From Promethearchaeota archaeon (lineage in GTDB: Archaea; Asgardarchaeota; Odinarchaeia; Odinarchaeales; JBHLKK01): DNA of 32,000 nt. A program made the translations under genes and the position numbers. Below the pieces are notes generated by a model, which was not told the DNA's origin, ran no database searches, and worked only from the letters and a program-made list of their open reading frames with translations. The stretch covers positions 1,256-33,255 of the forward strand of contig JBHLPL010000006.1 of NCBI GenBank assembly GCA_048939465.1, read 5' to 3'. Below are positions 5,515 through 28,014 of this stretch, one piece after another. Position 1 is the stretch's first letter; every line of letters begins with the position of its first letter.

Positions 5515-5781
5515 GCCTCACCAAAATCCAACATGAACAAGCAAGGTTTCTTCTCTCTGAAAAATAAATGTTGACTCGATTTAGGTAGTTCTAACGGATT
5601 AATCCTCTTCCTTCCCTGTTTTTGGCGCCCCTGACACTACGTGGATAATACCAGAAGATACCAGTAAGAGCAAAAAGCAACAAAAGGAAATTACTTCTTG
5701 TCTTCTGACCTCTGATCGGACTCTCTTGGGAAAGCAAAGATTTAAATATAACACCGTTATAATATCTCTCGGGAGTTGTAC

Positions 5782-6966
5782 ATGAAGAGAACGGTATATA
5801 TGGACAATGAGAGATCAACTCAAGTGGCAAAAGAAGTCTTAGACTCTATGGTTCCCTACTTCACAGAGTATTATGGTCATCCGGCTTCAATTCATGGACT
5901 GGGAGAGCGAGCGCATGATGCAATTGATGAAAGTGCAGAGACAATAGCTCGATCAATAAATGCAGGATCCAATGAGATCGTTTTTACCTCAGGAGGGACA
6001 GAGGCAAGTGATTTGGCAATAAGAGGCATCATCTACGCCAACAAAGACAAGGGTAGACACATGATTACGTCTAGAATTGAGCATCCATCAGTGATGAGAA
6101 TAACAGAAGAGCTTTCAAAACAAGGGTTTGAGGTCGACTATGTCAACGTAGATGAGAAGGGTTTCGTAGACCTAGAGGAATTGCAGCAGCTGATTAGAGA
6201 TGAGACTGTTTTGGTAAGCATAGCGCATGCAAACCACGAGATTGGATCGATTGAGCCAATAAAGGAAGTAGGAGAGATATTAAGAAACCAGAATCATAAG
6301 ATATATTTTCATGTTGATGGCCAGTCATCCTATACAAGACTCCCCATAGATGTTGCAGAATTCGATCTGGATGCATTAACGCTAAGCGCACATAAAATAC
6401 ATGGTCCCAAAGGTGTGGGTGCGCTCTATCTGAAAGAGAAGACAAAGATTGATCCGATACTCTTTGGATATGTCTCGCTATCAACATTAAGACCCGGAAC
6501 AGAGAATGTCCCAGGAATAGTCGGCTTTGCAAAGGCTGCTGAGATAGCTTTAAAGAATATCGATGAATATGTGGCTCATATGAGGAGTCTAAGAGATGAA
6601 TTGCTTGAAAGGATCGGAGAAACTATCCCTGAGACTTTGCTTCACGGTCCGAAAGGAGACAGGCGAAGTCCGAGCAATGTTAATTTCTCTTTTAAGTACA
6701 TAGAGGGAGAATCAATAATGATGTATTTGAATATGAATGGGGTGTATGTATCAACAGGCTCTGCTTGTGCGTCACGAAAACTGGAGCCGAGTCATGTCCT
6801 GACAGCAATAGGAGTGCCAATAGAGATTGCACATGGATCAATACTGTTTGCTCTAAGCAGGTATAACACGAAGGGTGATGTTGAATATGTACTCGAAGTT
6901 CTCCCGAAAGTTGTTGGCCATCTGAGAAGTATGAGTCCCTTATGGGACAAAAAGCACGAGAGGTAG
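5782..6966 (+). CDS. iscS: Cysteine desulfurase, IscS/NifS (group I)
   Basis: FTSGGTEA, PLP-lysine motif SAHKIHGPKG, RPGTENVPG, catalytic STGSACAS. ATG 5782 preferred (GGGAG SD); TTG 5776 is an alternative. Confidence 0.93.
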   Translation: MKRTVYMDNERSTQVAKEVLDSMVPYFTEYYGHPASIHGLGERAHDAIDESAETIARSINAGSNEIVFTSGGTEASDLAIRGIIYANKDKGRHMITSRIEHPSVMRITEELSKQGFEVDYVNVDEKGFVDLEELQQLIRDETVLVSIAHANHEIGSIEPIKEVGEILRNQNHKIYFHVDGQSSYTRLPIDVAEFDLDALTLSAHKIHGPKGVGALYLKEKTKIDPILFGYVSLSTLRPGTENVPGIVGFAKAAEIALKNIDEYVAHMRSLRDELLERIGETIPETLLHGPKGDRRSPSNVNFSFKYIEGESIMMYLNMNGVYVSTGSACASRKLEPSHVLTAIGVPIEIAHGSILFALSRYNTKGDVEYVLEVLPKVVGHLRSMSPLWDKKHER

Positions 6967-7750: not shown

Positions 7751-8887
7751 GTGGACGAGATGGAAATCACTTCATTCAAGATAAGGTATCCAAAGTTGGA
7801 GGATGACTGTACTCTTGTCAAAGGTGTCGTCAGGAGTCTAGAAGAGATGAGAGAAGATGAAATAACTTTTGTCGAACCATGTGCTGCAGAGGTAGGAAGG
7901 CTCATGGCCAAAATAACCCTTTCTGATGAGAAAGCTCAGAAACAGGGACTCTTTTTCGACAAGAGTATGTTGTGCGAGCTCTTTGAAGCATTTAAGGAGA
8001 GATTCTCCGAATTTGAATGCAGTAAGCTATTAGGCATAGTCAGGATAAAATGGAGAGGAAAGAACATATCACTCTTTGCTAGTGGCAGAATAAAAATCTC
8101 AACAGCCTTGAGTGAGGAGGACATCATGCGAATGCTTCACGATATCACTCGCTTGTCGTGGGGGGCAATGATCTGCAGCGTTTGCGGCAGTCCGGCGATA
8201 TATTGTGCTTCCGGAGCCTGCAATAAGTGTATTATTCACCAAGGAGATGAAACAAAAGAGGCCTTTGTCAGCGGCAAGCTACCAGGTCTGATTCTGACAA
8301 ATGCCCTAAACCAAATGGACCAAGCTATAAAAGAGCTGGAAGTCAATTATGAGAGACTCTTAAATAGGTTGATTAAGCAAGAGAAGAGTGACATATCACT
8401 TAGAGCTGCCTTGAAAAAGACATTGAAGACAGCCCAACTGAGCTTAGAATATATTCTTAGAGTAAGCAGCCCCGAAGATGCCCTAGCAGGATTCATGGTG
8501 TTGGGTTCTTCATGGAACCTCAGAACGGTGCTTGAAGCCGTGAAATGTATCTATGAGGAGATGGAAGCAGTCTGTGTCTTCTTTCAGGAAGTTGATAGAA
8601 CTCTTAGAGATTCTCTGTATAGTCTGTTAACGGGAGTGAATACAGTTCTTTCAATACTCTCTACCGGCTTCATGATCTTTGATAGAGAAGCCAGAGATTC
8701 TCTCGAAAGAAGAATCGGACTTCTCAAGAAAAGATTTCAAGACTTCAATAGAGGCAGTTTAGAGACACCAAAAAGACAAAAGGTTTTAGATACCTTGATC
8801 CATCTTATTGACTCGTTCTTAGCATTTGCACATCACCTATCCAAGATTCTCGGGGTGGAGTCTTTTGACAAAGGTGGAAGAGATTAG
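7751..8887 (+). CDS. Hypothetical protein, possible Fe-S/metal-binding (TBP-like N-domain, CxxC-x5-C-x3-CxxC cluster, helical C-terminus)
   Basis: 378-aa ORF; EPC...ISLFASGRIKI..ALSEED pattern recalls archaeal (Fe-S)-binding proteins; ICSVCGSPAIYCASGACNKC; overlaps the sufS start by 23 nt. Confidence 0.5.
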   Translation: MDEMEITSFKIRYPKLEDDCTLVKGVVRSLEEMREDEITFVEPCAAEVGRLMAKITLSDEKAQKQGLFFDKSMLCELFEAFKERFSEFECSKLLGIVRIKWRGKNISLFASGRIKISTALSEEDIMRMLHDITRLSWGAMICSVCGSPAIYCASGACNKCIIHQGDETKEAFVSGKLPGLILTNALNQMDQAIKELEVNYERLLNRLIKQEKSDISLRAALKKTLKTAQLSLEYILRVSSPEDALAGFMVLGSSWNLRTVLEAVKCIYEEMEAVCVFFQEVDRTLRDSLYSLLTGVNTVLSILSTGFMIFDREARDSLERRIGLLKKRFQDFNRGSLETPKRQKVLDTLIHLIDSFLAFAHHLSKILGVESFDKGGRD

Positions 8888-10088
8888 AGCAGACTTTCCC
8901 ATTTTGAGAAAGCGAAGGAAAAGAGATGATAAACCGTGCATATATCTTGATAATACTGCGACAAGCCTGAAGCCCAGGCAGGTGATAGAAGCAATTGTGG
9001 ATTACTACGAAAATCACTGTGCGAATATCCATCGTGGGGTCTACAGACTCTCTCAAGAAGCCTCCAGACTTTACGAAGAAGCTCATGATACGGTTGCCAA
9101 ATTCATAGGTGCAAGGAATAGGACTGAGATGAGTTTTGTTAAGAATACAACAGAGGCAATAAACTACGTAGCGTATGGAATTGATTGGAAGCCTGACGAC
9201 ACGGTCATAGCCTCGGTCATGGAACATCACAGCAACATTGTTCCCTGGCATCTAATAAGAGAGAAATTCGGGATAAAGATAAAATACGTGCCTTTGAGAG
9301 ACAACTGGTACCTTGATATTGACCAGTTGGAGGCATTAATTGATGACAAAACCAGACTTGTCACAGTAACTCAAGTATCCAACGTCGTTGGCACCATCAA
9401 TCCAATTGAAAGGATATGCAAAATTGCTCACGATCATGACGCTCTATGTCTTATTGATGCTGCCCAAGCAGTCCCTCATATGCCGGTAGATGTCAAAAGG
9501 ATCGGGTGCGATTTCTTGGCGTTCTCAGCCCATAAGATGCTTGGCCCCACCGGAATTGGGGGATTATACATTAAGGAAGGAATAGCGGAGCAGTTGTGTC
9601 CAACCTTAGGCGGAGGAGACATGATACGGAACGTCACACTGGAAAGCTGTGAATGGAACGTAATGCCTTGGAAATTCGAGGCAGGAACACCAAACATAGC
9701 AGGAGGAATTGGGCTCAAAGCTGCAGTAGATTACTTAAACAGCCTGGGTATGGAGTGGGTAAGGAATCACGAAAAGGAACTGACAGGATATATGCTGGAG
9801 CAGCTCGAAGGAATCCCGAAAGTCGAAATCTATGGGCCGCGAAATGTAGAAGAGAGGGGGGGTGTATGTGCATTCAATGTTGAAGGGTTGGATGCTCATG
9901 ATGTCGCCACTTTCTTAGATGAAATAGAGAACATAGCTGTCAGATCAGGAGTTCATTGCGCACAACCTCTACATAATACGCTTGGCATTCCAAGAACTGT
10001 GAGAGCATCCGTATACGTATATAATACGAAAGAAGAGACCGAGAAACTGTGCGATACCTTGAAAACAATATCTGAAGAACTAGCATAG
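8865..10088 (+). CDS. sufS: Cysteine desulfurase, SufS (group II)
   Basis: IRADFPIL, LDNTATSLKP, NIHRG, DAAQAVPH, FSAHKMLGPTGIG, KFEAGTPNIAG, catalytic RSGVHCAQP. TTG 8865 with SD GGGGTGGAG. Confidence 0.93.
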   Translation: MTKVEEIRADFPILRKRRKRDDKPCIYLDNTATSLKPRQVIEAIVDYYENHCANIHRGVYRLSQEASRLYEEAHDTVAKFIGARNRTEMSFVKNTTEAINYVAYGIDWKPDDTVIASVMEHHSNIVPWHLIREKFGIKIKYVPLRDNWYLDIDQLEALIDDKTRLVTVTQVSNVVGTINPIERICKIAHDHDALCLIDAAQAVPHMPVDVKRIGCDFLAFSAHKMLGPTGIGGLYIKEGIAEQLCPTLGGGDMIRNVTLESCEWNVMPWKFEAGTPNIAGGIGLKAAVDYLNSLGMEWVRNHEKELTGYMLEQLEGIPKVEIYGPRNVEERGGVCAFNVEGLDAHDVATFLDEIENIAVRSGVHCAQPLHNTLGIPRTVRASVYVYNTKEETEKLCDTLKTISEELA

Positions 10089-11100: not shown

Positions 11101-12585
11101 TCATATTAGAACCAATGTTTTCGAGAATAACTTCTTGAGTTCAGATGATGGTTCGCTGCTTCTTCTAAGTATATTCAGAGTGATTTTAAGAATTGCAAAG
11201 GCAGCCAAGTCCGTGATTCTGTCTCCGCTTTCCGCGGCGTCCTTGGCTGTGCTTCTTATGATTTCAAAGAACTGCGTGTTCAGATCTCTTTTCTTCTCTT
11301 CAATCTCCGTGTTGAGTGTCCCCAAAATTGCACCTATGTTCAAGCTCATTGAGTTCAGATTCTGCGGCAAATCCGTCGATACGATTTCACATCCCTCAAG
11401 ACTTAGCACACGAATACCTGTTCGCCTTATTAGTATTCTTTTGATTGAAGGGTTATCCCTGATCTTAGTCAGTGTTCTTATGAGATGTTCAATCCCCTTG
11501 ACTAGCGTTTCTTGTCTTGTCTTTAAAAGATTCCTTGCAGATCTTATGAAAGGGAGAAATATCTCTGTATGCATGTATCGCTGATTCTTCGGGTCGCCTA
11601 TCCAGACTTCTTCCTCATCAATTGCATTTTTGGCAGCACTGTATGTACTGTCTTCCACATCCTGAATACCGGAGAAAATACTGCCTAACACATCCTTATA
11701 ACTCTCACTCGTAAGAGTGTTTCTGAAAGCTTTGCTTCCCTCTAGTCCTCTTGCCAGAGCAGTATCGAACTCACATATTCTTTTGAGATTCTCAAATAGC
11801 TTCGCCATAGATGAGAGCCCTTCAGAGACTCCTTGTATGATGATGTTTGAAGGAAGGCGCAGCGTTGGATCTACTTCTTCTTTTCCGTATCTTAGGAAAT
11901 CGTTATAAAGATGCATCACTTTCTCGTTTTCCTTTCTAGTACTTTGCATGACAGCCAGTGTCTTATCCATTTCCGCCTGTAATCCTTTTATGGCTTCCTT
12001 GTTCCTCTCAATGTTCTCCTTGAGGTCGAGTTTGTCTTGAGTCAATATTCTGATCTTGTGATTCAGTGCGTTGATTTGATTCGTCTGATCGACTGTTTTG
12101 TATGATAACTCAGCGTTTTCTTCCTTCAGCGCTTTTGTGTCTTCTTCAAGGAGGGTAATACGATTCTGTTTCTCGCTCAACTGATTCCGCATAGCGGAAA
12201 TTTCATCTTGCGTCTTGACCAGCTGAGTCACCGTTTCGTCAAGGGGGTGAAAAATCACATTAACACGATTCTTTAATTCATCGATTTTACCTTGGATCGT
12301 AACCTGTTTTTCTTGGATGCTCTCTCCTTTAATATCCTTCTCAATAGTCCGTATTACGGAAGAGACAGTATCACCTTCTCCCTTTGGCAATTGACCGGTT
12401 AGCAAAAGCTGATTTAGCTGTCTCTTTAGCATATCAATACTATCATTAACCTTGGCAATGCTTTCTTTTTGCCCCAGCATATCCAAATCGATTCTTTTTG
12501 TCTCTTTGACGATTTCGGATAGTTGAACAATTAGTTTCTTCAGATTGTCGTACGCATTTCTAAGTGATTGGGGCATTTCTTGCAT
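11101..12585 (-). CDS. Long coiled-coil protein, third gene of the tubulin operon
   Basis: 494 aa; continuous heptad region of ~100 aa (QDEISAMRNQLSEKQNRITLLEEDTKALKEENAEL...GLQAEMDKTL); SD GGTGA; starts 29 nt after the tubulin stop. Confidence 0.8.
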   Translation of the reverse strand: MQEMPQSLRNAYDNLKKLIVQLSEIVKETKRIDLDMLGQKESIAKVNDSIDMLKRQLNQLLLTGQLPKGEGDTVSSVIRTIEKDIKGESIQEKQVTIQGKIDELKNRVNVIFHPLDETVTQLVKTQDEISAMRNQLSEKQNRITLLEEDTKALKEENAELSYKTVDQTNQINALNHKIRILTQDKLDLKENIERNKEAIKGLQAEMDKTLAVMQSTRKENEKVMHLYNDFLRYGKEEVDPTLRLPSNIIIQGVSEGLSSMAKLFENLKRICEFDTALARGLEGSKAFRNTLTSESYKDVLGSIFSGIQDVEDSTYSAAKNAIDEEEVWIGDPKNQRYMHTEIFLPFIRSARNLLKTRQETLVKGIEHLIRTLTKIRDNPSIKRILIRRTGIRVLSLEGCEIVSTDLPQNLNSMSLNIGAILGTLNTEIEEKKRDLNTQFFEIIRSTAKDAAESGDRITDLAAFAILKITLNILRRSSEPSSELKKLFSKTLVLI

Positions 12586-12614: not shown

Positions 12615-13889
12615 TTACCCACTTTTTAGATTGTCGTAGGTCTCAATTATGTGTTGAAAAGTATCCCTTGCCTCTCTCAACTGATCTCTTGACACTCCTT
12701 CTTCCTCGTAGTGGCTTATATACCAGTTTCTCTCAAAAAGCGAATCGAAGTTCTCCAGAACATGTTTGAATGCATCGGTTATTGCTACGTTGTTTGCAAG
12801 TAGCGTAATCTCTTTTTCGAAACCGGTGGGACTGCTCTCGCAGATGCCATATTTTAGGCCTAAGTCTGGATGAACTCCAGGAACATAGTCCACAGTAGCT
12901 CTTATCTCATTCATAATATTGTAGATATTGTCTATTGATATTTCGCCCCGAAACATTATAACGGAAGATATTGCTGAGCCTTTATCATTACAGCTAACCA
13001 TGAAATGGCTTGGGTCAAAACAACGTTCTATAAGATCTAATTCTGTAGCATCTTTCCCTTCTTCCTTGGTCAGGGGAGCCACCGCAGGAATGATGAACTT
13101 TGTCTCGGGAAGCGCAACCAAATTATGAGCCATCTCCATAAGATCCATATTCAGCTGTCCTGGGAATCTGAGAGACGCAGTTATGGATGCCATGACTCTG
13201 CCTATCAGAAAGTTAAGGTCAGAGAATTGCTTTATGAAGGGTTGATTAAATATATCCTTCACTATTCGCATCAAAGCACTGTTATCGAACATGACGCATA
13301 TGTCTGCATGTTTCATTAGATGGGTTATACTCAAAACCGTGTTGTAAGGAGCTATTGTGATGTCGTTCATACGAGCGGGCAAGACACTGAACGTCATAAC
13401 ACCTTTTTCCGGAAACTCCTTCTTCAGCGTTTCAGCAATTAAGGAACCAAACCCACTTCCAGTACCTCCGCCAAGCGTATGGATTATTATAAAACCCTGT
13501 AATGTGTCTGGGACTGTGGTTTTGATTTTCTCTAGGAGGTTTGGGATTAATCGCTTCCCAAGCTTATATCCCGTGGCCCAGACGTTATGAGCCCCCGAAT
13601 AACTGAGTAACATAAGCTCTTCTGAAAAGAATTTATCAAGACCTTTTTCGCGTACCAGAAACTCAACGGCCAGTGGCTCGAGGTCAATGAACAAAGATCT
13701 TGGATGGAACCCATCCGGTGATTCGACGAGGAAGACAGATTTGTAGTCAACAATATCGGAATCCTCTTCCTTCTTCTGCAGAGTCTTCATGTCAATTCCA
13801 TGTTCCGAGCATATAGTATTCCAGAAATTATAACCTATTTGATTTCCGCCCTGCCCAACATGTAGGACAAGTATCTCTCTACCAGGCAT
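12615..13889 (-). CDS. Eukaryote-like tubulin, OdinTubulin-type
   Basis: MPGREILVLHVGQGGNQIG, FIDLEP, GAHNVWATGY, signature HTLGGGTGSG (GGGTGSG at 13452-13472), APYNTVLS, FDNSAL, SITASLRFPGQLNMDLMEM, WYISHYEEEG. The alternative ATG at 13895 adds ML. Confidence 0.95.
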   Translation of the reverse strand: MPGREILVLHVGQGGNQIGYNFWNTICSEHGIDMKTLQKKEEDSDIVDYKSVFLVESPDGFHPRSLFIDLEPLAVEFLVREKGLDKFFSEELMLLSYSGAHNVWATGYKLGKRLIPNLLEKIKTTVPDTLQGFIIIHTLGGGTGSGFGSLIAETLKKEFPEKGVMTFSVLPARMNDITIAPYNTVLSITHLMKHADICVMFDNSALMRIVKDIFNQPFIKQFSDLNFLIGRVMASITASLRFPGQLNMDLMEMAHNLVALPETKFIIPAVAPLTKEEGKDATELDLIERCFDPSHFMVSCNDKGSAISSVIMFRGEISIDNIYNIMNEIRATVDYVPGVHPDLGLKYGICESSPTGFEKEITLLANNVAITDAFKHVLENFDSLFERNWYISHYEEEGVSRDQLREARDTFQHIIETYDNLKSG

Positions 13890-13906
13890 CAGCATCGCCT
13901 CTCATT

Positions 13907-15547
13907 CTATTCCAAACTAGATTTCTTTCTTGTTGAGTAAATTCTGTGTAGTTTTTTTGTAATGGTCTTACATGACGCATCATTTGATACGTATTTTGCA
14001 AAATACTCGTAAATATCATCGTAAGTGACATTGCCCATAAGCTTTTCTTTCAGCATCTCCACGCTCACAACAACGGAAAGTTCATCTGTATCAATGACGG
14101 TAACCGACGGATTGTAGGCGACGTAGATTCTCAGAACAGGATCTGAAACCGCGTTGACTTCTCCTCTTTTTATCCATCCACGCTCACCAAAACCTTTCAG
14201 CGCATTATTCACAAGGTCAATATCCTCTTCGTAAAGTGTTATTGGAAGAACGCCATGCGTTATGAAGTCCTCGCCGGTATATTTCTGTGGAATGCAGTCC
14301 ACAAACATCGATATGCCTCTTATAGTTTCCTTGTTTATCCTTGAAGATCTCATTCGTATGCAGCTCTTGAGGGGTTCGTATGCCTCGATTAGGAAGCTTC
14401 CGAGCAACATGAGTTTTCGTTTAAGCTCATCCCAATCATAAGCGTTTCCATCTCCCTGAATCCATCTGTCCAGTATTATGTCAAAGTAGCTCATCAGCAA
14501 TGGAGAAGGGTTCTTTAGGTTTGAGAGCAGATCTTTGATATTCTTTATGCTCGTAGAGATCGGATCTGCGATCTCTTCTAACTTCTTAGCAAAATCTTTC
14601 TCTCTTTCAGCATATTCAGAATGATCTGTCTTAAAGCTGGATATGAGCAGGTTCATTAGCTTGACTGCTCCGTCGATATCATGATTCTTAAGAATCACCC
14701 TGGGACTGATTCCTGCAGAAACGAGCATTTGCACACCTCTAACCAGTGCGATTTCTGCGTCTTTCATGTTTTCAAGGATTGGGACAGCTTTCTGCAAATA
14801 CTCGTCATCAACTTCTTCCATTTGAACCTCAATCATGAACTTCTCAAGGAAGCTTTTCAGATTTCTGTTGAAGAATTTCTGCTCACTGTCAGTTATTCCT
14901 CGGACTTTCTCCGACATTTTCCTTAATTTGCTCATAACCTCAGAGCGAATCCTGATTCTTCTTTCCAAATCCCTTCTGAATTCCTTATGTTCAGAGAATT
15001 TCTTCTCAGCATTCCCTATGATTTCCAGAATCAGATCGTATTTCTCATCAACTGACTCTATGTTGCTCTTGCCTTCGGCGACCGCTGTCTTGAGCGGTCC
15101 AAGAGATGCGTTTATGCGAGATATCGCTTTTATGGCTTCGTCCATTCCTCCCCACGATAGGTCCATGCTCTTCATCATAGCTTCCAGACTATCAAATGCG
15201 ATCAAAATCTCCTCACAGCCTTTTTCCAGATCCTTCGCTCTGCTTAATACTGAATCTAGCAGCAAACCATCTCCTCGGTTTAATGTATTTTCCAGCGTTT
15301 TCAAATATGCCTCCAATTTCTTCAGCTTCTTTTTTGCGCCACCAAAAATGCCTCTTATTCCTTTCCGGACTTCTTTTACCTGCTTGGCTTCTGTTTTTAG
15401 CCCTTCTGCCCGTGACCGGAGTTCATTCAAATCTTGGGTTATTTGTCCGGGCACAAGACCTAAGGAGTCGGCCACCTTTTCCCTAAGCCATAGCCTTCGC
15501 ATAAACTGGTCAATTCTTTCATTCAAAGCTTTCTGAGCTTTTTGCAA
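13907..15547 (-). CDS. Helical/coiled-coil protein, first gene of the tubulin operon
   Basis: 546 aa; K/E/L-rich helical repeats over the first ~300 aa, small alpha/beta C-terminal domain; stop 11 nt before the first tubulin ATG; TTG start with GGGGTAGAAGG upstream. Confidence 0.78.
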   Translation of the reverse strand: MQKAQKALNERIDQFMRRLWLREKVADSLGLVPGQITQDLNELRSRAEGLKTEAKQVKEVRKGIRGIFGGAKKKLKKLEAYLKTLENTLNRGDGLLLDSVLSRAKDLEKGCEEILIAFDSLEAMMKSMDLSWGGMDEAIKAISRINASLGPLKTAVAEGKSNIESVDEKYDLILEIIGNAEKKFSEHKEFRRDLERRIRIRSEVMSKLRKMSEKVRGITDSEQKFFNRNLKSFLEKFMIEVQMEEVDDEYLQKAVPILENMKDAEIALVRGVQMLVSAGISPRVILKNHDIDGAVKLMNLLISSFKTDHSEYAEREKDFAKKLEEIADPISTSIKNIKDLLSNLKNPSPLLMSYFDIILDRWIQGDGNAYDWDELKRKLMLLGSFLIEAYEPLKSCIRMRSSRINKETIRGISMFVDCIPQKYTGEDFITHGVLPITLYEEDIDLVNNALKGFGERGWIKRGEVNAVSDPVLRIYVAYNPSVTVIDTDELSVVVSVEMLKEKLMGNVTYDDIYEYFAKYVSNDASCKTITKKLHRIYSTRKKSSLE

Positions 15548-17751: not shown

Positions 17752-19041
17752 TTACTCATCCATTAGCCTAGACCATAAAGCCACTAACTCTCTTGAGATA
17801 TTCCGATGATCTTCACTGTAGATCTTAAGAGCTTCTTCACCCTTTTTGCTCAAGAGCAAAAACCTCTGATGGTTCCCGTCCCCCTCAGGATCCGTAAAGG
17901 AGATAATGTACTTCAGTCTTTCGAGTTTCTCAAGAACCTTCAAAGTCGTATTAATGTCCGTCGTGGGGGCAACACGCTCAAGAGTTGAGCCAGGATAATC
18001 AAGCAATGATTGTAGGACTTCAACAGCAAGAGGTAGTTCGTCATCTGCGAAGTCCTCATCCAGTAGGATTCTTCTTATTCGCATTGTGCTGTCCGAATAT
18101 GGTTTCATGGGATCGATTCTATGGGTTGGTGCGTAATCACTAATCTCTCTTTCGGTTGTTTCCCGGAGGGCTAGGTCCGTTGAAAGATGAGAAGGGGACC
18201 GTCGCTTCTTGGAAGACACATTTGATGTTAATGATGAAGCTATCGGACCCTCTGTAATCAAATTCGCAACCTCGGATTCTCTCAGAGCGAGATCAAGACC
18301 AGTCTCAGAGTCTATTCCACCGCTCATAATTCCCGATCGCAGGACTTTGATTAGGTTGTCTCGATCAATTCTGCGAACTTCGCACTCTGGAAATGATGTA
18401 TGAATGGAAGTCTTCACTATAAACATATTTTTCCGGACTTCTTCGGCCAGTATTGCGCACTTCTCTTCGAGGTTTAAAAAGCCCTTCATATTCTTGTGGA
18501 CCGCAATTAGCACCTTCACATTCCAATAATTTTCATGCAGCTTGAGATAGTTGAGTCTGTCATGGTTGACTCGATCCTCTGATGGATTTTGAACCAAGAT
18601 ATACGTTAGTGATATGTTCTCGTCATGAAGAGTCTTCAGAACACCATCAAGATCTCCTCTGAAGCCCTTTGGGACCATTTTGAGAGCAAGGAATCCTAAG
18701 GCAGTTATTGTAGATTCCTTCTTTGTTATAACTACGTCATCATAGTTTCCGTAAAGATAAAACTGAATGCCTTTTAGGACATCTATTTCTTTCAGTCTAC
18801 CCTGAGTTTCTCTTCTTACATTTCTAAGTCTTCCCACATCATAGAGCTTCTTCTTTGCTCCTTTGGCAAGTCTTTTGAGTTGACTGTAATTCAGCGCAAC
18901 CATTGTAACTGCCATTGGTATAATGAAAAGGAATAGTGTGACAGCTGTGTTACTTGCAAGGAGTAGAATAGCGTTTAGTGCAATGAATCCAACCACCAGG
19001 AGAACGATGAATTTAATGATCCCTCCAGATAGAACCTTCAC
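17752..19041 (-). CDS. Membrane-anchored hypothetical protein (two N-terminal TM helices, C-terminal winged helix)
   Basis: Hydrophobic N-terminus IIKFIVLLVVGFIALNAILLL / TAVTLFLFIIPMAVTMVAL; C-terminal wHTH pattern TLKVLEKLERLKYII...LLLSKKGEEAL; GTGA stop/start overlap with the upstream gene. Confidence 0.65.
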   Translation of the reverse strand: MKVLSGGIIKFIVLLVVGFIALNAILLLASNTAVTLFLFIIPMAVTMVALNYSQLKRLAKGAKKKLYDVGRLRNVRRETQGRLKEIDVLKGIQFYLYGNYDDVVITKKESTITALGFLALKMVPKGFRGDLDGVLKTLHDENISLTYILVQNPSEDRVNHDRLNYLKLHENYWNVKVLIAVHKNMKGFLNLEEKCAILAEEVRKNMFIVKTSIHTSFPECEVRRIDRDNLIKVLRSGIMSGGIDSETGLDLALRESEVANLITEGPIASSLTSNVSSKKRRSPSHLSTDLALRETTEREISDYAPTHRIDPMKPYSDSTMRIRRILLDEDFADDELPLAVEVLQSLLDYPGSTLERVAPTTDINTTLKVLEKLERLKYIISFTDPEGDGNHQRFLLLSKKGEEALKIYSEDHRNISRELVALWSRLMDE

Positions 19042-19409
19042 GATTCAAACTCTCCCAACAGCTTTGTTCCAATATAGATTGTGAACATCCCTGGGACCCC
19101 AAAGCCAATAAACCATAGCACTGTTTCAAACATGCCAGATTGAGTAAATAATCCACCAATGACTCCTGCCATGGCTACCGTGAGAAATCCCACCCCGACG
19201 GACGTGATGAGGCTCCCTACAAGCCTATGAACAGGGCTAGTACCTCGCCTCTCCTCCTTAATCCTAGCTCTTTCCAGCCTATCAAGTAAGTCCAGACAGC
19301 TAAGCTTGGAAATAGCATAATCGCTGGAAGACATCTCTCCTTCCTCATACTTCGAATCAATGAATTTCAAAAGCCTAGCTACCTCTTCTTCCATCACCGA
19401 AATCCTCAT
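19038..19409 (-). CDS. Small membrane protein with N-terminal SHOCT-like motif and two TM helices
   Basis: IDSKYEEGEMSSSDY motif; hydrophobic LVGSLITSVGVGFLTVAMAGVIGGLF and TVLWFIGFGVPGMFTIYIG; translationally coupled to 17752..19041. Confidence 0.6.
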   Translation of the reverse strand: MRISVMEEEVARLLKFIDSKYEEGEMSSSDYAISKLSCLDLLDRLERARIKEERRGTSPVHRLVGSLITSVGVGFLTVAMAGVIGGLFTQSGMFETVLWFIGFGVPGMFTIYIGTKLLGEFES

Positions 19410-21542: not shown

Positions 21543-22007
21543 ATGGGTGATTTGAGTCTTGTTGGGAGATGTGGGTTGTACTGTGGTGCATGCGGAATAC
21601 TCAGGGCATACAAGGACAGAGGAGAGTATCTTCAAAAGGTCGCTAAATTCCATAAACTACCACCAGAAAAAATAAGATGTGAGGGTTGCCAAGCTCTCAC
21701 CGCTGACTGTTGGGGATCTAATTGTGAGATCCTCAAGTGCCTAGATGCAAAAGGATTCGATTACTGCTATCAGTGCCCAGACTATGATTCAAGGTCATGC
21801 GAAAAGTTTGAAAAGTTCGCAGAAGCCTATCTAAAGGAAGACAATGTAGATCTCAGAGCAAACCTTGAGAGAATAAAGGCGGGAGACTACGAGAACTGGC
21901 TTAAGGAAAGCGAAGAGAGATTCAGATGTCCTAAATGCGGAAAACCTTTGTCAACATATAGCAGGATTACCGAGTGTTATCACTGTAATGAGAAACTGTC
22001 AGGTTAG
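21543..22007 (+). CDS. DUF3795 domain Cys-rich protein with C-terminal zinc ribbon
   Basis: CGLYCGACG, CEGC, CEILKC, CYQCPDY...C, CPKCG...CYHC; SD GGAGGG. Confidence 0.85.
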   Translation: MGDLSLVGRCGLYCGACGILRAYKDRGEYLQKVAKFHKLPPEKIRCEGCQALTADCWGSNCEILKCLDAKGFDYCYQCPDYDSRSCEKFEKFAEAYLKEDNVDLRANLERIKAGDYENWLKESEERFRCPKCGKPLSTYSRITECYHCNEKLSG

Positions 22008-22055
22008 CGAACCATTCAATCTACTTCTGAAGTTCCATTGTGGGGAATGACACTA

Positions 22056-23300
22056 ATGCTAAGGCTATTTAATACCCTTACACATAAGAAGGAACCCTTT
22101 ATCTCGAGAGAAGGTAAGAAAGTAAAAATGTACACTTGCGGCCCTTCAGTCTATAGACGGCCCCATATTGGGAATTATCGCACTTTTCTCTATGAGGATG
22201 TTCTTCAACGATATCTGGAGTATCTCGGCTATAATGTTATCCGGCTTGTCACTTTAACAGATGTTGAAGACAAGGCAATCTACGAAGCAGAAAACAAGAA
22301 GACTGCTCTGGAGAATCTCACACAGAGAATTGCTGAGGTATTCTTCTCTGAGGAGAAGCTTCTGGGAATCAAACCTGCAGACTTCTTTCCTCGTTCTTCA
22401 ACTTCGGTCGATCAAGCAGTAGAACTGATTAAGATCTTGATAGATAAGGGATACGCCTATTGGCACAAGCATGAGAATAGACTAAATGTTTACCTAGATC
22501 CATTGAAGATCAAAGAATTTGGAAAACTGTCAAAAATAGATATGAATAACTGGCCGAAGAGTAAACGCCGGTTCCATAAAGACAATTATCCTGGTACCCC
22601 TTGGAACAAGGGAGATTTCATACTGTGGCACGGCCATAAGAAGGCGGACAAAGTATACTGGGATACCGACATTGGTAAAGGCAGACCAGCCTGGAACGTC
22701 CAAGACGGAGCCATGGTAACCAAACATCTGGGATTCAGCGTAGATATTGCGTGCGGGGGAATAGATAATCTCGTGAGACATCATGACTACAATATCGCAG
22801 TAATAGAAGGAGTCTCAAACAAGGAGTTTTCGCATTACTGGCTCCATGGTGAGCATCTGCTTGTGGATGGAAAGAAGATGTCGAAAAGCAGGGGAAATGT
22901 CTATTACCCTGGGGATCTCATACAGATGGGATATAGTGAAAAACATATACGTTTCTTTCTCATCTACGAACACTACAGAAAGCGATTGAACTTCACAGTT
23001 AAGAAATTCAAGAGAATAAGCCAGAGACTGGACAACTTCAGAGACACTATCGGAGATCTGATAAGCGGAGAATCCGGTGAGTCAAGTCAGACAGCAAGAA
23101 GTCTTGTCGCCGAGATTATTACTAGTTTTGAAGAGAATATGAACAATGACTTGAATGTGAAGAATGGCTTTGATGATCTTCAAAGGATCATCTTAGGACT
23201 CAACACATTAAGGAAGAATGGCAGACTTGCAACTGAAGACGCTGCTGCTGCCGTAGCAAGCCTGCAGAAGATTGATCAAGTTCTACGCGTAATCTTCTGA
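22056..23300 (+). CDS. Cysteinyl-tRNA synthetase paralog (class I) with altered Zn ligands and no C-terminal anticodon domain
   Basis: MLRLFNTLT..KE.F, YTCGPSVY..PHIGNYRTF, TDVEDK, GRPAWNVQDGAM, HHDYNIA, KMSKS; ends after the DALR-like helical domain. Confidence 0.85.
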   Translation: MLRLFNTLTHKKEPFISREGKKVKMYTCGPSVYRRPHIGNYRTFLYEDVLQRYLEYLGYNVIRLVTLTDVEDKAIYEAENKKTALENLTQRIAEVFFSEEKLLGIKPADFFPRSSTSVDQAVELIKILIDKGYAYWHKHENRLNVYLDPLKIKEFGKLSKIDMNNWPKSKRRFHKDNYPGTPWNKGDFILWHGHKKADKVYWDTDIGKGRPAWNVQDGAMVTKHLGFSVDIACGGIDNLVRHHDYNIAVIEGVSNKEFSHYWLHGEHLLVDGKKMSKSRGNVYYPGDLIQMGYSEKHIRFFLIYEHYRKRLNFTVKKFKRISQRLDNFRDTIGDLISGESGESSQTARSLVAEIITSFEENMNNDLNVKNGFDDLQRIILGLNTLRKNGRLATEDAAAAVASLQKIDQVLRVIF

Positions 23301-23770
23301 TATTTCGGGGTTAAGCAGAAATGAGAGGTGCTGTGTTTAAACTGAATACCTTTCAGATGATTTCCCACCACTGAAATGCAAGCCTTTCGAAGCAGGAATA
23401 CCCAAGCCTAATGAGAGAGGATCAAGAGTCATCACAAGTAGGACAGGAATACGAAAGCGGAGAGAAAACACCGTAGAGAAGGTCTACAGATTAGAATACC
23501 TCAAAATAAGCAAATAGATTCTTCAAAAAGGCAGCAGAGGCAGCCTAAGACGAAGAAGATCGTCAGGATTTATACATTTCATGGAATATGACAGGATTAA
23601 TTCCGATTAATCACGTCTATAGGAACCTCCTGAGAATTATTTCATTTTGGCAGGAAAAATAAACAATGTCCAAACCTAAATCTCGAAATCTTTTTAATAT
23701 TATTCATTATACGAATTAAACGTCATAAAAAAAGATGAATGAGAAGTACTCAATTCGGGGGTGGAGTAAT

Positions 23771-26179
23771 ATGGTGGAAGAACTACCGGTTGAGAACCTA
23801 AGAAAAGTGTTTAGGCCCGAGGGGTTCGAGTGTGAAACTACCAAAGACCTGCCGCCTCTTGAGGGAATTGTTGGTCAAGAGAGGGCAGTGAGGGCACTGA
23901 GATTTGGGCTGGATATCAAGGAACCAGGGTTCAACGTATACATGGCAGGAGAATCAGGGACTGGCAGGATGACAGTTTTAAAGGATTTCCTGGGTGAGAT
24001 AGCAAAAAAGAAGAAGATTCCAGACGACTGGTGTTACGTTAATAACTTCAAGAGTCCCTACGAGCCAGAGGCTGTAAAACTGCCTGCGGGTAAAGGCAAG
24101 GAATTCAAGAAGGACATGGCGAACCTAATTAATGATATTAGAAGATTGCTCCCTGAAGCCTTCAGAAGTGATGATTATACCGCGAAAAGAGAGGCAACCG
24201 TCAGAGCCATAGAGGAAGAGAGAGAGGAACTAATTACTCGGGTCAACAAGAGAGTTCAAGAAGAGGGATTCTCCCTCAGAAGCAGCCCGATAGGTTTGGT
24301 TATGATTCCCATGGTTGAGGGGAAACCCTTGAGCGAGGAGGAGTTTGTGGCTCTAAGTCCAGAGAGAAAGGAAGAAATCGAGAAGCGAAGAACAAAACTA
24401 GATACGGAACTGAGAGTTGTCTTAAGGCAAATAAGGGATTTAGGAAAGAAGATTGGACAGGAGCTTGAAAAAGTCAATCATGAAGTGGCCCTCTTTGTAA
24501 TAGGGCCATTAATAGCGGATCTAAAAGAGAAATATGAAGGGCTTTCTGGATGTTTGAATTACATAGATAATGTTAAGGATGACATCTTAGAGAATGCTCC
24601 ACAGTTTATAAAGGAACGCGGGCCCAAGGCTCCCGGCATTTCTGCTCAACTTCCTTGGACCATGGAGGTTCCTTTCAGAAAATACGAAGTGAACCTAACA
24701 GTAGATAATTCAGATCTGCAAGGTGCTCCAGTGGTTTTGGAGACCAATCCAACACATCAGAATCTATTTGGAAAGATCGAGAAGGAGGCACGATTCGGGG
24801 TTTTAACAACTGATTTCACCATGATACGGCCAGGTTCGTTACACAGAGCAAATGGTGGATATCTGGTACTTCCGGTTGAAGAGCTGCTGCGAAACATTTT
24901 CACTTGGGACGGACTCAAGATGGCCATCAAGAATAAGGAGGTTTCAGTCGAAGAACTGGGAGAACGCCTAGGGTTTATCACAACGAAGAGTCTTAGGCCC
25001 GCTCCCATACCGTTAGATGCCAAGGTGATACTTGTAGGGAAGACCGAGTACTATCATATTCTGTATATTCTTGACAGAGACTTCAAAGAGTTGTTCAAGG
25101 TCAAAGCAGAGTTCGACACAACCATGGATCGGACAAAAGAAAACATAGACAAGTTTGCATCGTTCATTTGTACCTTCTGCAGAAAGGAGAATCTGAAACA
25201 TCACGAAGCAACAGCAGTGGCCAAGCTGATCGAGTACAGTTCCAGACTAGCTGACCATCAGGAGAAGTTGTCTACCAAATTCTCGGAAATTGCAGACATC
25301 ATCAGAGAAGCTAACTTCTACGCTACCCAGGAGAGCGCTGAGTATATCACAGGAAATCATGTCAGGAAAGCCATCGAAGAAAAAATACACAGATCAAGGC
25401 TTCTGCAAGAGAAGATACAGGAGATGATCAAGCAGGGGTTTCTGCTTATCGATATAGAAGGCGAGAAGGTGGGGCAGGTAAATGGGCTTTCTGTGATGAG
25501 TTTAGGCGATTTCTCCTTTGGGCGACCCTCACGTGTTACGTCAAGTGTTGGTATGGGGAGAGAAGGCATTATAGATATTGAGCGTGAGGCGATGCTCGGA
25601 GGAAGTATTCATACCAAAGGTGTCATGATACTTGGCGGCTACTTAACAGAGAAATATGCCAAGGATAAACCACTCAGCTTGTCTACACGATTAGTCTTTG
25701 AACAGAGTTACAGCGGAGTAGAAGGGGATAGTGCTTCAAGTACCGAACTCTATGCAATTCTCTCAGAACTCTCAGGACTTCCTATTAAGCAATATATTGC
25801 TGTTACTGGTTCTGTGAATCAGAAGGGAGAGGTTCAGGCTATTGGCGGAGTGAATCAAAAGATCGAGGGGTTCTTTGAAGTATGTAAGATCAAAGGTCTT
25901 ACAGGAAAACAAGGAGTGATGATACCTCAAAGCAACGTGCAAAATCTGATGTTAAAAGAAGAAGTATTAGAGGCAGTCAAGGAAGGGAAATTCCACGTAT
26001 ACGCTGTGAGTAGTATTGATGAGGGGGTTGAGGTCTTAACAGGGGTTCGGGCGGGTAAAAGAAAACCTGATGATGAGTTTGAAGAAGGAACTGTGAATTT
26101 TGCTGTGGACAAACGTCTAAGAGAAATGGCTGAAAAGATTAAGGAATATCCTGAATTTATCTTGAGAAAAAGAAGTTGA
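23771..26179 (+). CDS. Lon-like S16 protease, LonC type
   Basis: IVGQERAVRAL.FGL, degenerate Walker A GESGTGRMT, coiled-coil insertion, GSLHRANGGYL, catalytic Ser in VEGDSAS and Lys in IGGVNQKIEGF; ATG 23771 with SD GGGGTGGAG. Confidence 0.88.
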   Translation: MVEELPVENLRKVFRPEGFECETTKDLPPLEGIVGQERAVRALRFGLDIKEPGFNVYMAGESGTGRMTVLKDFLGEIAKKKKIPDDWCYVNNFKSPYEPEAVKLPAGKGKEFKKDMANLINDIRRLLPEAFRSDDYTAKREATVRAIEEEREELITRVNKRVQEEGFSLRSSPIGLVMIPMVEGKPLSEEEFVALSPERKEEIEKRRTKLDTELRVVLRQIRDLGKKIGQELEKVNHEVALFVIGPLIADLKEKYEGLSGCLNYIDNVKDDILENAPQFIKERGPKAPGISAQLPWTMEVPFRKYEVNLTVDNSDLQGAPVVLETNPTHQNLFGKIEKEARFGVLTTDFTMIRPGSLHRANGGYLVLPVEELLRNIFTWDGLKMAIKNKEVSVEELGERLGFITTKSLRPAPIPLDAKVILVGKTEYYHILYILDRDFKELFKVKAEFDTTMDRTKENIDKFASFICTFCRKENLKHHEATAVAKLIEYSSRLADHQEKLSTKFSEIADIIREANFYATQESAEYITGNHVRKAIEEKIHRSRLLQEKIQEMIKQGFLLIDIEGEKVGQVNGLSVMSLGDFSFGRPSRVTSSVGMGREGIIDIEREAMLGGSIHTKGVMILGGYLTEKYAKDKPLSLSTRLVFEQSYSGVEGDSASSTELYAILSELSGLPIKQYIAVTGSVNQKGEVQAIGGVNQKIEGFFEVCKIKGLTGKQGVMIPQSNVQNLMLKEEVLEAVKEGKFHVYAVSSIDEGVEVLTGVRAGKRKPDDEFEEGTVNFAVDKRLREMAEKIKEYPEFILRKRS

Positions 26180-26273: not shown

Positions 26274-26744
26274 ATGAACGAAAAGAAATCATTATTTAAA
26301 ATTCTAATCCAGAAGACAGTAGGTATCTTGAATGATGAAAGGGGCGAAAACAGAAAACTCAAGGAAATATGCAGATTGCTCAAGGATAATGTAACCTATT
26401 ATGATTGGGTGGGATTCTATTCTGTTGACAGGAAAGGAGAAAAGGAGCTTGTACTTGGACCGTTTGAGGGGGAACCGACAGAACATGTAAGAATACCTTT
26501 TGGAAAGGGGATATGTGGGCAAGCTGCGGACACGGAAAAGACGTATATCGTTCAAAATGTGAAAAAGGAATCAAACTACTTGTCCTGTAGCCCTAAAGTC
26601 AAGTCTGAGATTGTTGTCCCAATATCCAGAGGAGGAAGGGTCGTGGGTGAGATTGACGTAGATTCTCACACTCTTTCACCGTTCACAGAGGAAGATAGGG
26701 AATTCCTTGAGAAAATAAGTAGCTTGGTATCCAGTCTTCTTTAA
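26274..26744 (+). CDS. GAF domain protein, free methionine-R-sulfoxide reductase (fRMsr/MsrC)-like
   Basis: YDWVGFY, LVLGPFEGE, RIPFGKGICGQAA, YLSC...KSEIVVPI, GEIDVDS; the first (resolving) Cys of the E. coli-type enzyme is replaced by His (TEHVRI). Confidence 0.8.
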   Translation: MNEKKSLFKILIQKTVGILNDERGENRKLKEICRLLKDNVTYYDWVGFYSVDRKGEKELVLGPFEGEPTEHVRIPFGKGICGQAADTEKTYIVQNVKKESNYLSCSPKVKSEIVVPISRGGRVVGEIDVDSHTLSPFTEEDREFLEKISSLVSSLL

Positions 26745-26995: not shown

Positions 26996-27550
26996 CTAGG
27001 TCTTTCCTTTTACATATCCGTGCATTGTCACTTCAGCAAACATCTCTCTTTTTGCTTTACAAATCGGACAGAGATAAGGAGGTTCTTCTCTATAACATAC
27101 ATAACCGCATTGTTTACAGTACCACATTATTAGACCGATTCTGGGGGTTCTCTTAACGGTCGCTGCTCTTGTATCAGAGGATTTTTCAGGAGGGGTTTCG
27201 GCAGCCCCTGCAAAGGCTCTGGCTTCTTTGTCCGCGGGTCTCCGTTCGGGGATCTTTCTCACAGGGAGCCTGCCCTCAAACACGTCCTTGTTAACATAAA
27301 GCGAACAATAGCAGACTCCGAACTCCTCGACGTCCGGGTCCCGATAGTCACAGGGGCAGACGATATCCCTATCAAGCTCGAAATTTCCTGACGCAAGTCT
27401 GCAGGGACAGGAAGGATAGCCGTATCGCTCTTCATTTCGGTTCAGTCCTTCAAGAAGACCTTTAAGAAAATCCGGATCAGGATTCAAATAGTAACCGCGA
27501 GTCTTTGCGTCGCTTTCTGCCCTTCGTCGAACCCTTTCCAGATTCTTCAT
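26996..27550 (-). CDS. Ferredoxin:thioredoxin/disulfide reductase catalytic subunit with C-terminal rubredoxin-like domain (FDR-type)
   Basis: CPC (YPSCPCR), CPC (IVCPCDY), CYC; C-terminal WYCKQCGY...PYLCPICKA; 4-nt overlap with the glutaredoxin gene. Confidence 0.88.
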   Translation of the reverse strand: MKNLERVRRRAESDAKTRGYYLNPDPDFLKGLLEGLNRNEERYGYPSCPCRLASGNFELDRDIVCPCDYRDPDVEEFGVCYCSLYVNKDVFEGRLPVRKIPERRPADKEARAFAGAAETPPEKSSDTRAATVKRTPRIGLIMWYCKQCGYVCYREEPPYLCPICKAKREMFAEVTMHGYVKGKT

Positions 27551-27899: not shown

Positions 27900-28014
27900 T
27901 GGTAGCCCGGGAGAGATTCGAACTCTCGTCCAGGGGTGTTTCCAAACCTTGGTCTAACCCGGTTTTCCAGAGCCCCCGATGATTGATCTTTTTTGACCGC
28001 TACACCACCGGGCT
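27900..28014 (-). tRNA. tRNA-Gln(CUG) precursor with a 29-nt intron at 37/38 and a probable 10-nt intron at 21/22; CCA encoded
   Basis: Acceptor AGCCCGG/CCGGGCT + A + CCA; T-arm GAGAG-TTCGAAT-CTCTC; anticodon stem GGGGG/CCCCT with CTG at 27968-27970. Removing 27938-27966 and 27983-27992 gives a standard 76-nt tRNA. Confidence 0.9.

Follow-up and report, generated by a model that had tools for sequence, protein, structure and literature searches.

What does a cysteinyl-tRNA synthetase (CysRS) do once its metal site has been rewired and its anticodon-binding domain is gone? The question is raised by a gene at positions 22056–23300 (+ strand) of a 32,000 nt stretch of contig JBHLPL010000006.1 from a Promethearchaeota archaeon of the order Odinarchaeales (the whole stretch is referred to here as the window). 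The gene is very likely an intact, conserved member of a CysRS-derived family that has not been studied. The function tentatively preferred for it is activation of cysteine, or a close thiol amino acid, on a re-ligated metal site, followed by transfer to an RNA acceptor.

A CysRS-derived protein with an altered active site

The reading frame is intact from its ATG start to its TGA stop and encodes a product of 414 aa. The ATG at 22056 is the likely start: it agrees with the N-termini of homologues (MLKLFNTL..., MLxxFNTLT), and the six residues that a start at the TTG at 22038 would add are found in no homologue. The product matches the CysRS catalytic domain (PF01406) with 246.5 bits. Its score on the cysS equivalog model TIGR00435 is 309.2, under the cut-off of 340 for a canonical CysRS, and on the MshC model TIGR03447 it reaches 171.6 bits, also under the cut-off (485.1). 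The alignment to E. coli CysRS (HMMER, 1LI5) stops near residue 390 of 461, so the anticodon-binding domain at the C-terminus is missing, and the protein is about 60 residues shorter than the canonical CysRS of the same genome. An AlphaFold2 model built from a 120-sequence alignment (pLDDT 94.2, pTM 0.93) was matched by Foldseek first to CysRS structures (8qhp at TM 0.89, then 1li5, 3tqo and 1u0b), then to MshC, with MetRS far behind; against the CysRS structures the TM scores are 0.83–0.89. The paralogue is accordingly modelled with a CysRS fold of the class I Rossmann type.

In the 1LI5 alignment, C28 and H234 are retained (E. coli numbering; H234 is H242 in the paralogue), the HIGH motif reads HIGN and KMSKS is unchanged. 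WHIEC has become WNVQD (H206N, E208Q and C209D) and HHENE has become HHDYN (N237Y and E238N), so that the canonical zinc ligand set C28/C209/H234/E238 is broken at two positions, by C209D and E238N. The codons are GAC at 22704 for D217 and AAT at 22791 for N246. A first-pass annotation of the locus, made from the letters of the DNA, had described a CysRS paralogue that keeps C28, H234, HIGN and KMSKS, carries H206N, C209D and E238N, and lacks the C-terminal domain. All of this stands: the substitutions agree exactly in alignment and codons, descent from CysRS is supported by the PF01406 match and the CysRS-first order of the fold matches, and its standing as a paralogue by the separate canonical cysS in the genome. 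Changes that it had not listed are G225C (C233, within DIACGG), P233R and a basic CP1 loop (WPKSKRRFHKD). C28 and C233 are the only two cysteines in the protein. Judged by the alignment, the main departure from the CysRS pocket is the combination of C209D, H206N and E208Q.

Conservation and phylogeny of the family

A search over 5.8 billion proteins returned more than 100 proteins of 58–86% identity, nearly all of them 394–429 aa long; the named homologues are annotated as "class I tRNA ligase family protein" and come from metagenome-assembled genomes of Hodarchaeota, Lokiarchaeia and Bathyarchaeia. Across more than 130 relatives (40–86% identity), the motifs GRP[AS]WN[IV]QD and RHHDY[NT] are kept with zero exceptions. 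Conservation was counted in a family alignment of 120 sequences. Residues C28, G29, S31, T68, W213, N214, Q216, D217, R241, H242, H243, D244, Y245, K274 and K277 are present in 120/120; of these, G29, S31 and T68 make up the alpha-amino triad, and K274 and K277 are the KMSKS lysines. HIGN and the GG.D motif, which binds ribose, are likewise present in 120/120. Position 233 is Cys in 116 sequences and Ala in the other four, and mean column identity is 72% across phyla.

In a profile search over 1.84 billion representatives, the core family forms one 50%-identity cluster (P0121, 626 bits), to which the search adds divergent members with 39–54% identity to the paralogue that share the signature. 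A phylogeny of the D/N-substituted paralogues, as the first-pass annotation had suggested, was reconstructed with FastTree (137 sequences, midpoint root) and places all signature-bearing proteins in a single clade with support 98. The sister of this clade is P0160, a protein of 405 aa with WNVQC and HHENT, and short proteins with canonical ligands (P0129, P0138 and P0146) lie at the base of the remaining CysRSs. On this quick midpoint-rooted tree, the anticodon-binding domain was likely lost first and the pocket changed later. Since the altered residues are invariant across homologues that form one clade, the comparison indicates that the altered site is under purifying selection and not in decay. 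Full-text literature searches turned up no account of the family, only MshC, CysRS* and Zur-regulated CysRS paralogues.

Routes to Cys-tRNA in the host and distribution of the family

The host genome (1.96 Mb, 91% complete) carries a canonical cysS (506.7 bits on TIGR00435), whose 477-aa product has both WHIECS and HHENE and extends through the C-terminal domain, SepRS (509 bits, cut-off 381), SepCysS (395 bits, cut-off 365) and two tRNA-Cys(GCA) genes. Both of the routes that the first-pass annotation had proposed looking for are thus found, and the paralogue would not be the only Cys-charging route of the genome. Because the host holds complete Cys-tRNA routes, the paralogue is very likely not the housekeeping CysRS, and the presence of two normal routes points to some other ligation as its task. 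A canonical CysRS and/or SepRS is likewise present in 17/17 informative family-bearing genomes. One genome (G301) with neither enzyme, in which the family gene might have been the sole Cys-charging enzyme, was discarded as void, as IleRS, LeuRS, ValRS and PheRS gave no match in it either, marking the sequence as incomplete.

The two host tRNA-Cys(GCA) genes (host contigs C84:8460-8560, − strand, and C11:6414-6484, + strand) are quite different from each other. In one of them the CCA is encoded and there is no intron; the second, interrupted by an intron of 30 nt, sits directly upstream of the canonical cysS. Host tRNA counts (7 to 15 by ARAGORN, 24 by Rfam, most with introns) represent an incomplete census; most of the matches are 90–140 nt long, marking the set as intron-rich.

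A family-only profile separates members (above about 490 bits) from canonical CysRSs (230–375 bits). With it, the family was found in 4/301 Asgard genomes, three of which belong to the host's own genus, in 8/151 genomes of the class of a Bathyarchaeota carrier, and in 5/41 Methanosarcinaceae genomes that are at least 90% complete. Four of these five Methanosarcinaceae carriers have SepRS and no canonical CysRS. One divergent member lies amid bacterial-type genes (PBP, ExbBD, GrpE, RecO and infA). The pattern fits a rare and patchy accessory gene that is horizontally mobile among anaerobes. Displacement of cysS in place was considered for the Methanosarcinaceae and rejected, the family and canonical cysS loci having no clear flanking synteny in common.

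The amino acid pocket and the metal site

In MshC, the substrate's alpha-amino group is contacted by the main chain of G44 and the hydroxyls of T46 and T83, and zinc is held by three protein ligands only, C43, C231 and H256 (PMC9736012). The equivalents of the three contact residues are the invariant G29, S31 and T68, so that the first substrate of the family would still be an L-alpha-amino acid. The first-pass annotation had stated that MshC keeps the zinc ligands of CysRS; this is correct for C43, C231 and H256 (PMC9736012), and incorrect for the fourth CysRS ligand, at which MshC reads HHEYS. As MshC binds zinc with three ligands and an HHEYS helix, the paralogue could still bind a metal without E238.

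In a table of ligand positions for 139 superfamily representatives, Asp at 209 occurs in two contexts, each with a Cys elsewhere: at position 225 in the paralogue family, or at position 237 in three full-length CysRSs with WHIED and HHECE, one of which passes the cysS equivalog model (486 against 340). P0124 and P0128, which also show Asp or a gap at this position, were set aside because their motif region is disrupted. In both contexts two thiolates, one imidazole and one carboxylate are kept, with their positions permuted. Since Asp209 is accompanied by a relocated Cys and the composition is preserved, the pattern suggests re-ligation of the metal site instead of its loss, and continued selection of a thiol amino acid. 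W205, which in structural work on 1LI7 reportedly packs onto the cysteine side chain, is invariant in the family (W213). Alternatively, the presence of just two cysteines might reflect a disulfide switch between C28 and C233.

In the three full-length CysRSs (P0157, P0203 and P0234; 455–467 aa, WHIED and HH(E/D)CE), the zinc cysteine appears from the alignment to have shifted to position 237 from 209, so that nature itself offers a permutation of ligands usually regarded as invariant.

A rival explanation, though an unlikely one, is altered specificity, in which zinc has been lost and a small side chain other than a thiol is accommodated in a polar pocket made by D217, N214, Q216 and Y245. Its substrate might be, e.g., serine, threonine, 2,3-diaminopropionate or phosphoserine, and its acceptor either RNA or a small molecule. 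Indeed, the E. coli set of four zinc ligands has lost two to replacement, and the adjacent H206 and E208 are changed too; every replacement is polar and invariant, R241 and Y245 are new invariant residues beside the pocket, and C233 is missing in 4/120 members. However, C28 and H242 are invariant and would have no obvious role if the metal were gone, Asp209 is always found with a relocated Cys save in the two representatives with a disrupted motif, and the tryptophan that reportedly contacts the cysteine side chain has not changed. A Cys-His-Asp site is also competent to bind zinc for thiolate substrates, as in protein farnesyltransferase.

The acceptor side

The CP1 loop reads the first acceptor base pair, according to the work on CysRS* (PMC5389517). 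In the family, the canonical xAGARV of this loop is replaced by WPKKKRRFHKD, with K170, R171 and R172 nearly invariant, and the KKKRR stretch occupies the site where CysRS and CysRS* read that pair. Over the same 414 columns, the family has a net charge of +11.6 (isoelectric point, pI, 9.1) compared to −8.2 (pI 6.3) for canonical CysRSs; for the CP domain the values are +5.9 and −1.6. By alignment, then, three elements that link CysRS to tRNA-Cys are changed or gone (the anticodon domain, the CP1 loop and the overall charge). Still in place are the stem-contact fold, the helical bundle and the HYR..LNFT motif. For an enzyme that has gained some 20 positive charges after losing a specific RNA-binding domain, and whose gene moves on its own, a polyanion found everywhere, such as tRNA, would seem a better fit as acceptor than a bespoke metabolite.

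Gene neighbourhood

The gene order in the window is MarC, DUF167, DUF3795, the paralogue, a Lon-like protease and a GAF protein, and it recurs only in one relative of 76% identity. The adjacent DUF3795 gene had been proposed as a possible partner, an idea that is abandoned here: the adjacency is limited to that syntenic relative and is found at 0/17 other loci, and tblastn of the window neighbours against seven family loci gave no match, indicating local synteny only. At the Lokiarchaeia, Bathyarchaeia, Methanosarcinaceae and bacterial loci the neighbours all differ, and among the family loci compared there is no operon partner conserved across lineages. Within lineages, a Bcp peroxiredoxin gene lies directly upstream on the same strand at seven mutually syntenic Bathyarchaeia loci; the gap is a few bases, and the two genes probably form one transcript there. 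A Y-family polymerase gene (DinB) is directly downstream at four other loci. By eye, there is an excess of genes for stress response and repair, namely Bcp, DinB, UDG, DJ-1/PfpI, nitroreductase, Lon-like, GAF and a fusion of ferredoxin-thioredoxin reductase (FTR) with rubredoxin. Neither a tRNA-Cys nor a selC-like gene was detected by ARAGORN in 19 related loci or the window, the nearby tRNAs being for Arg and Gln only, and no dedicated acceptor-biosynthesis genes were seen near the family loci.

The full order at the seven Bathyarchaeia loci (L005-L009, L098 and L103) is UDG, a methyltransferase, an alpha/beta hydrolase, Bcp, the paralogue, a cytochrome b5-like gene and MetRS. In the window, the downstream Lon-like protease has LonB AAA, LonC helical and Lon_C domains, and the next gene encodes a single-GAF protein of 156 aa that resembles free methionine-R-sulfoxide reductase in size and motifs. 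It is followed by an FTR catalytic subunit fused to a rubredoxin-like domain, and together these three genes form a redox and protein-quality cluster.

The neighbourhoods bear on a second alternative, also unlikely, that the family consists of MshC-like ligases which adenylate cysteine (or another amino acid) and move it to the amine or hydroxyl of a metabolite. Such a ligase might yield a low-molecular-weight thiol, or some similar compound that protects anaerobes. The paralogue has the length and domain set of MshC, including the absence of the anticodon domain, its HHDY[NT] resembles the HHEYS of MshC, and metabolic add-ons typically show just such a patchy, accessory occurrence. The upstream Bcp genes of the Bathyarchaeia, and the DinB, DJ-1/PfpI, nitroreductase, Lon-like, GAF and FTR-like genes at other loci, point the same way. 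Nevertheless, the TIGR03447 score is not only far from its cut-off but lies under those of canonical CysRSs (203–225), and there are no recurring glycosyltransferase, deacetylase or acetyltransferase genes near the family loci. The Bcp link comes from one syntenic set of loci and may represent a single event, and a strong positive charge with a basic CP1 loop would be superfluous for a small neutral acceptor.

Proposed function and its alternatives

Thiol activation with an RNA acceptor, the explanation tentatively preferred here, would run as follows. The family, which is monophyletic, accessory and horizontally mobile, would descend from CysRSs that lacked the anticodon-binding domain. The metal would be held by C28, H242 and D217, usually aided by C233, preserving a Cys2-His-carboxylate composition. 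From such a re-ligated site it would follow that the enzyme continues to activate cysteine, or a thiol amino acid much like it, as an aminoacyl-adenylate. The amino acid would then be passed to an RNA acceptor recognised by shape and charge, either tRNA-Cys read without its anticodon or another RNA, and the enzyme would be dispensable for ordinary translation.

Several observations weigh against this proposal. Ala replaces C233 in four family members, implying that the minimal ligand set would be Cys-His-Asp, and Cys225 is also present in about 15% of canonical CysRS representatives, so that its covariation with Asp209 is not an exclusive one. The paralogue has changed H206 and E208, which canonical CysRS conserves; at a guess, both might belong to the second shell around the metal, in which case their replacement would fit metal loss as well. 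Positive charge is an indirect pointer to RNA binding, and MshC, which has the same architecture, acts on a small molecule. Linkage to a partner tRNA gene is absent from the loci scanned, and some neighbours (Bcp, DinB, Lon-like, GAF, DJ-1 and nitroreductase) are stress rather than translation genes.

The first-pass annotation had proposed an adenylating enzyme with a different amino acid or a different acceptor, and the two halves of this proposal fare differently. A ligase with a non-canonical acceptor is reasonable in view of the ATP motifs and the invariant G29, S31 and T68. A different amino acid is possible but is disfavoured by Asp209 with its relocated Cys and by the kept W205; the Cys2-His-carboxylate composition likewise suggests a thiol amino acid.

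A bolder version of the preferred explanation, judged improbable, is that anaerobes have in this family a third type of synthetase that handles cysteine, with a permuted metal site and a charge-driven grip on RNA, that aminoacylates RNA in connection with stress. In that case the Cys-His-Asp site (usually with the relocated Cys) possibly holds Fe(II) rather than Zn, or is switched by a C28–C233 disulfide. If true, this would be a new RNA-aminoacylation activity beyond the genetic code, directed at an RNA other than canonical tRNA-Cys or at a tRNA charged without anticodon reading. Finally, a non-catalytic relic or regulatory pseudo-enzyme would agree with a score under the cysS equivalog cut-off and with a dispensable gene missing from most relatives, but is barely conceivable for an intact frame with a confidently predicted fold, 72% mean column identity across phyla and complete conservation (120/120) of HIGN, the KMSKS lysines, GG.D and the alpha-amino triad.

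Truncated synthetase paralogues have repeatedly turned out to represent new chemistry, as in mycothiol synthesis by MshC, tRNA modification by Glu-Q-RS and UGA recoding by CysRS*. The present family is large, comprising one 50%-identity cluster and several divergent ones, with hundreds of distinct sequences under tight constraint in Asgard archaea, Bathyarchaeia, methanogens and some bacteria. Its zinc-ligand permutations form a natural series at a site presented in textbooks as fixed, by which cysteine selection by CysRS becomes newly testable. If cultured strains are included among the SepRS-only Methanosarcinaceae carriers (genomes at least 90% complete), the enzyme could be accessible there, or by expression in E. 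coli.

Other features of the window

Coordinates of the paralogue, its motifs and the other annotated features are collected in Table 1.

Table 1. Positions of the paralogue gene, its motifs and other features in the window.
Feature	Position	Strand	Details
CysRS-derived paralogue gene	22056–23300	+	414 aa, ATG to TGA (23298-23300); Pfam/TIGR, AlphaFold2
C28 (TGC 22137), CGPS loop, HIGN (H37-N40)	22137–22175	+	predicted first metal ligand, G29/S31 alpha-amino contacts, ATP motif; C28, G29, S31 120/120
Rebuilt CP1 segment W166-H192 (WPKSKRRFHKDNYPGTPWNKGDFILWH)	22551–22631	+	basic, aromatic; replaces canonical xAGARV acceptor-stem loop
WNVQD (W213-D217), replacing WHIEC	22692–22706	+	W205 kept; H206N, E208Q, C209D; 1LI5 alignment
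DIACGG (D230-G235)	22743–22760	+	C233 at E. coli G225 position; Cys in 116/120
RHHDYN (R241-N246), replacing PHHENE	22776–22793	+	H234 kept; N237Y, E238N; resembles MshC HHEYS
KMSKS loop (K274-S278)	22875–22889	+	1LI5 alignment, family alignment
DUF3795 gene, upstream neighbour	21543–22007	+	Pfam; no conserved partnership
Lon-like protease	23735–26179	+	
Single-GAF protein	26274–26744	+	156 aa
FTR catalytic subunit–rubredoxin-like fusion	26996–27550	−	
Class-V aminotransferase	5776–6966	+	cysteine desulfurase-like
Class-V aminotransferase	8826–10088	+	cysteine desulfurase-like; PF00266 472 bits
Large ORF	11101–12585	−	no Pfam match
Tubulin	12615–13895	−	425 aa; Pfam Tubulin and Tubulin_C
Large ORF	13907–15547	−	no Pfam match
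ORF	17752–19041	−	429 aa; no Pfam match
ORF	19038–19409	−	123 aa; no Pfam match
tRNA-like gene	27903–28014	−	112 nt (G000:C134:29158-29269); Rfam 34.9 bits

The window also carries a tubulin gene, flanked on both sides by large open reading frames (ORFs) on the same strand. Its product matches the 'Tubulin-like protein' of PDB entries 7evb, 7evg and 7evh over its full length with about 704 bits, which is presumably the Odinarchaeota tubulin; matches to eukaryotic beta-tubulins and Asgard AtubB reach about 240–260 bits. The tubulin would thus put the host near Odinarchaeia, although its close relatives carry Hodarchaeota labels. ARAGORN did not detect the tRNA-like gene, which shows A1:U72 and A73 and encodes its CCA; it must contain at least one intron, and could be an initiator-type tRNA. 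The two cysteine desulfurase-like aminotransferase genes are 2 kb apart, and the second also gives a weak match to the SepCysS model. The overlapping pair of ORFs encoding 429 and 123 aa has predicted membrane segments and is also present in the syntenic relative (L085).

Comparison with known systems

Canonical CysRS (1LI5/1U0B and 8QHP) shares with the paralogue the Rossmann, CP, stem-contact and helical-bundle fold, the HIGH-type and KMSKS motifs, C28, W205, H234, G29, S/T31, T68 and HYR..LN(F/Y)T. The family differs from it in having no anticodon domain, a pI of about 9 rather than 6, the changes C209D, E238N/T, H206N, E208Q, N237Y, P233R and G225C, and a basic CP1 loop, and its gene is an accessory one found beside true Cys-tRNA routes.

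MshC (3C8Z and 8HFM) is also derived from CysRS, is about 410 aa long without an anticodon domain, and has Tyr237 and no Glu238 (HHEYS in MshC, HHDYN/T in the family). MshC has WHVEC, in which C231 is a ligand, and DIQGGG, whereas the paralogue has Asp217 at the equivalent of C231. A closer kinship to MshC than to CysRS was rejected on the TIGR model scores, with the family at 172–189 bits on TIGR03447 (cut-off 485), under the canonical CysRSs. The family occurs in anaerobic archaea and some bacteria, whereas MshC occurs in Actinomycetota with mshA, mshB and mshD; the named relatives of the paralogue are archaea, with no actinobacterial name among them, and nearby there is no recurrent partner, msh genes not having been searched for genome-wide.

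Glu-Q-RS (YadB), a GluRS paralogue in truncated form, glutamylates the queuosine of tRNA-Asp. It is likened to the family by analogy only, as a class I paralogue that lost its anticodon domain, still adenylates and has a non-canonical action on RNA, and it differs in its parent synthetase and in its modified-base acceptor, of which no sign was seen for the family.

CysRS* of Desulfobacterales (Mukai et al. 2017, PMC5389517) is a second CysRS without an anticodon domain and with altered CP1 residues, an anticodon-blind enzyme that still charges a tRNA. It is coupled to selC* tRNA-Cys(UCA) and selB*, a coupling not seen for the paralogue in the 19 loci and the window, and metal-ligand changes are not described for it in the text consulted. 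In proteobacteria, the CysRS paralogues under Zur control (Haas et al. 2009, PMC2770081) are likewise second CysRSs, thought to be related to metal supply; they keep the zinc-binding residues, and the canonical set is not kept in the family. The paralogue falls outside all of these named families and would work most like a cysteine-type adenylating class I enzyme.

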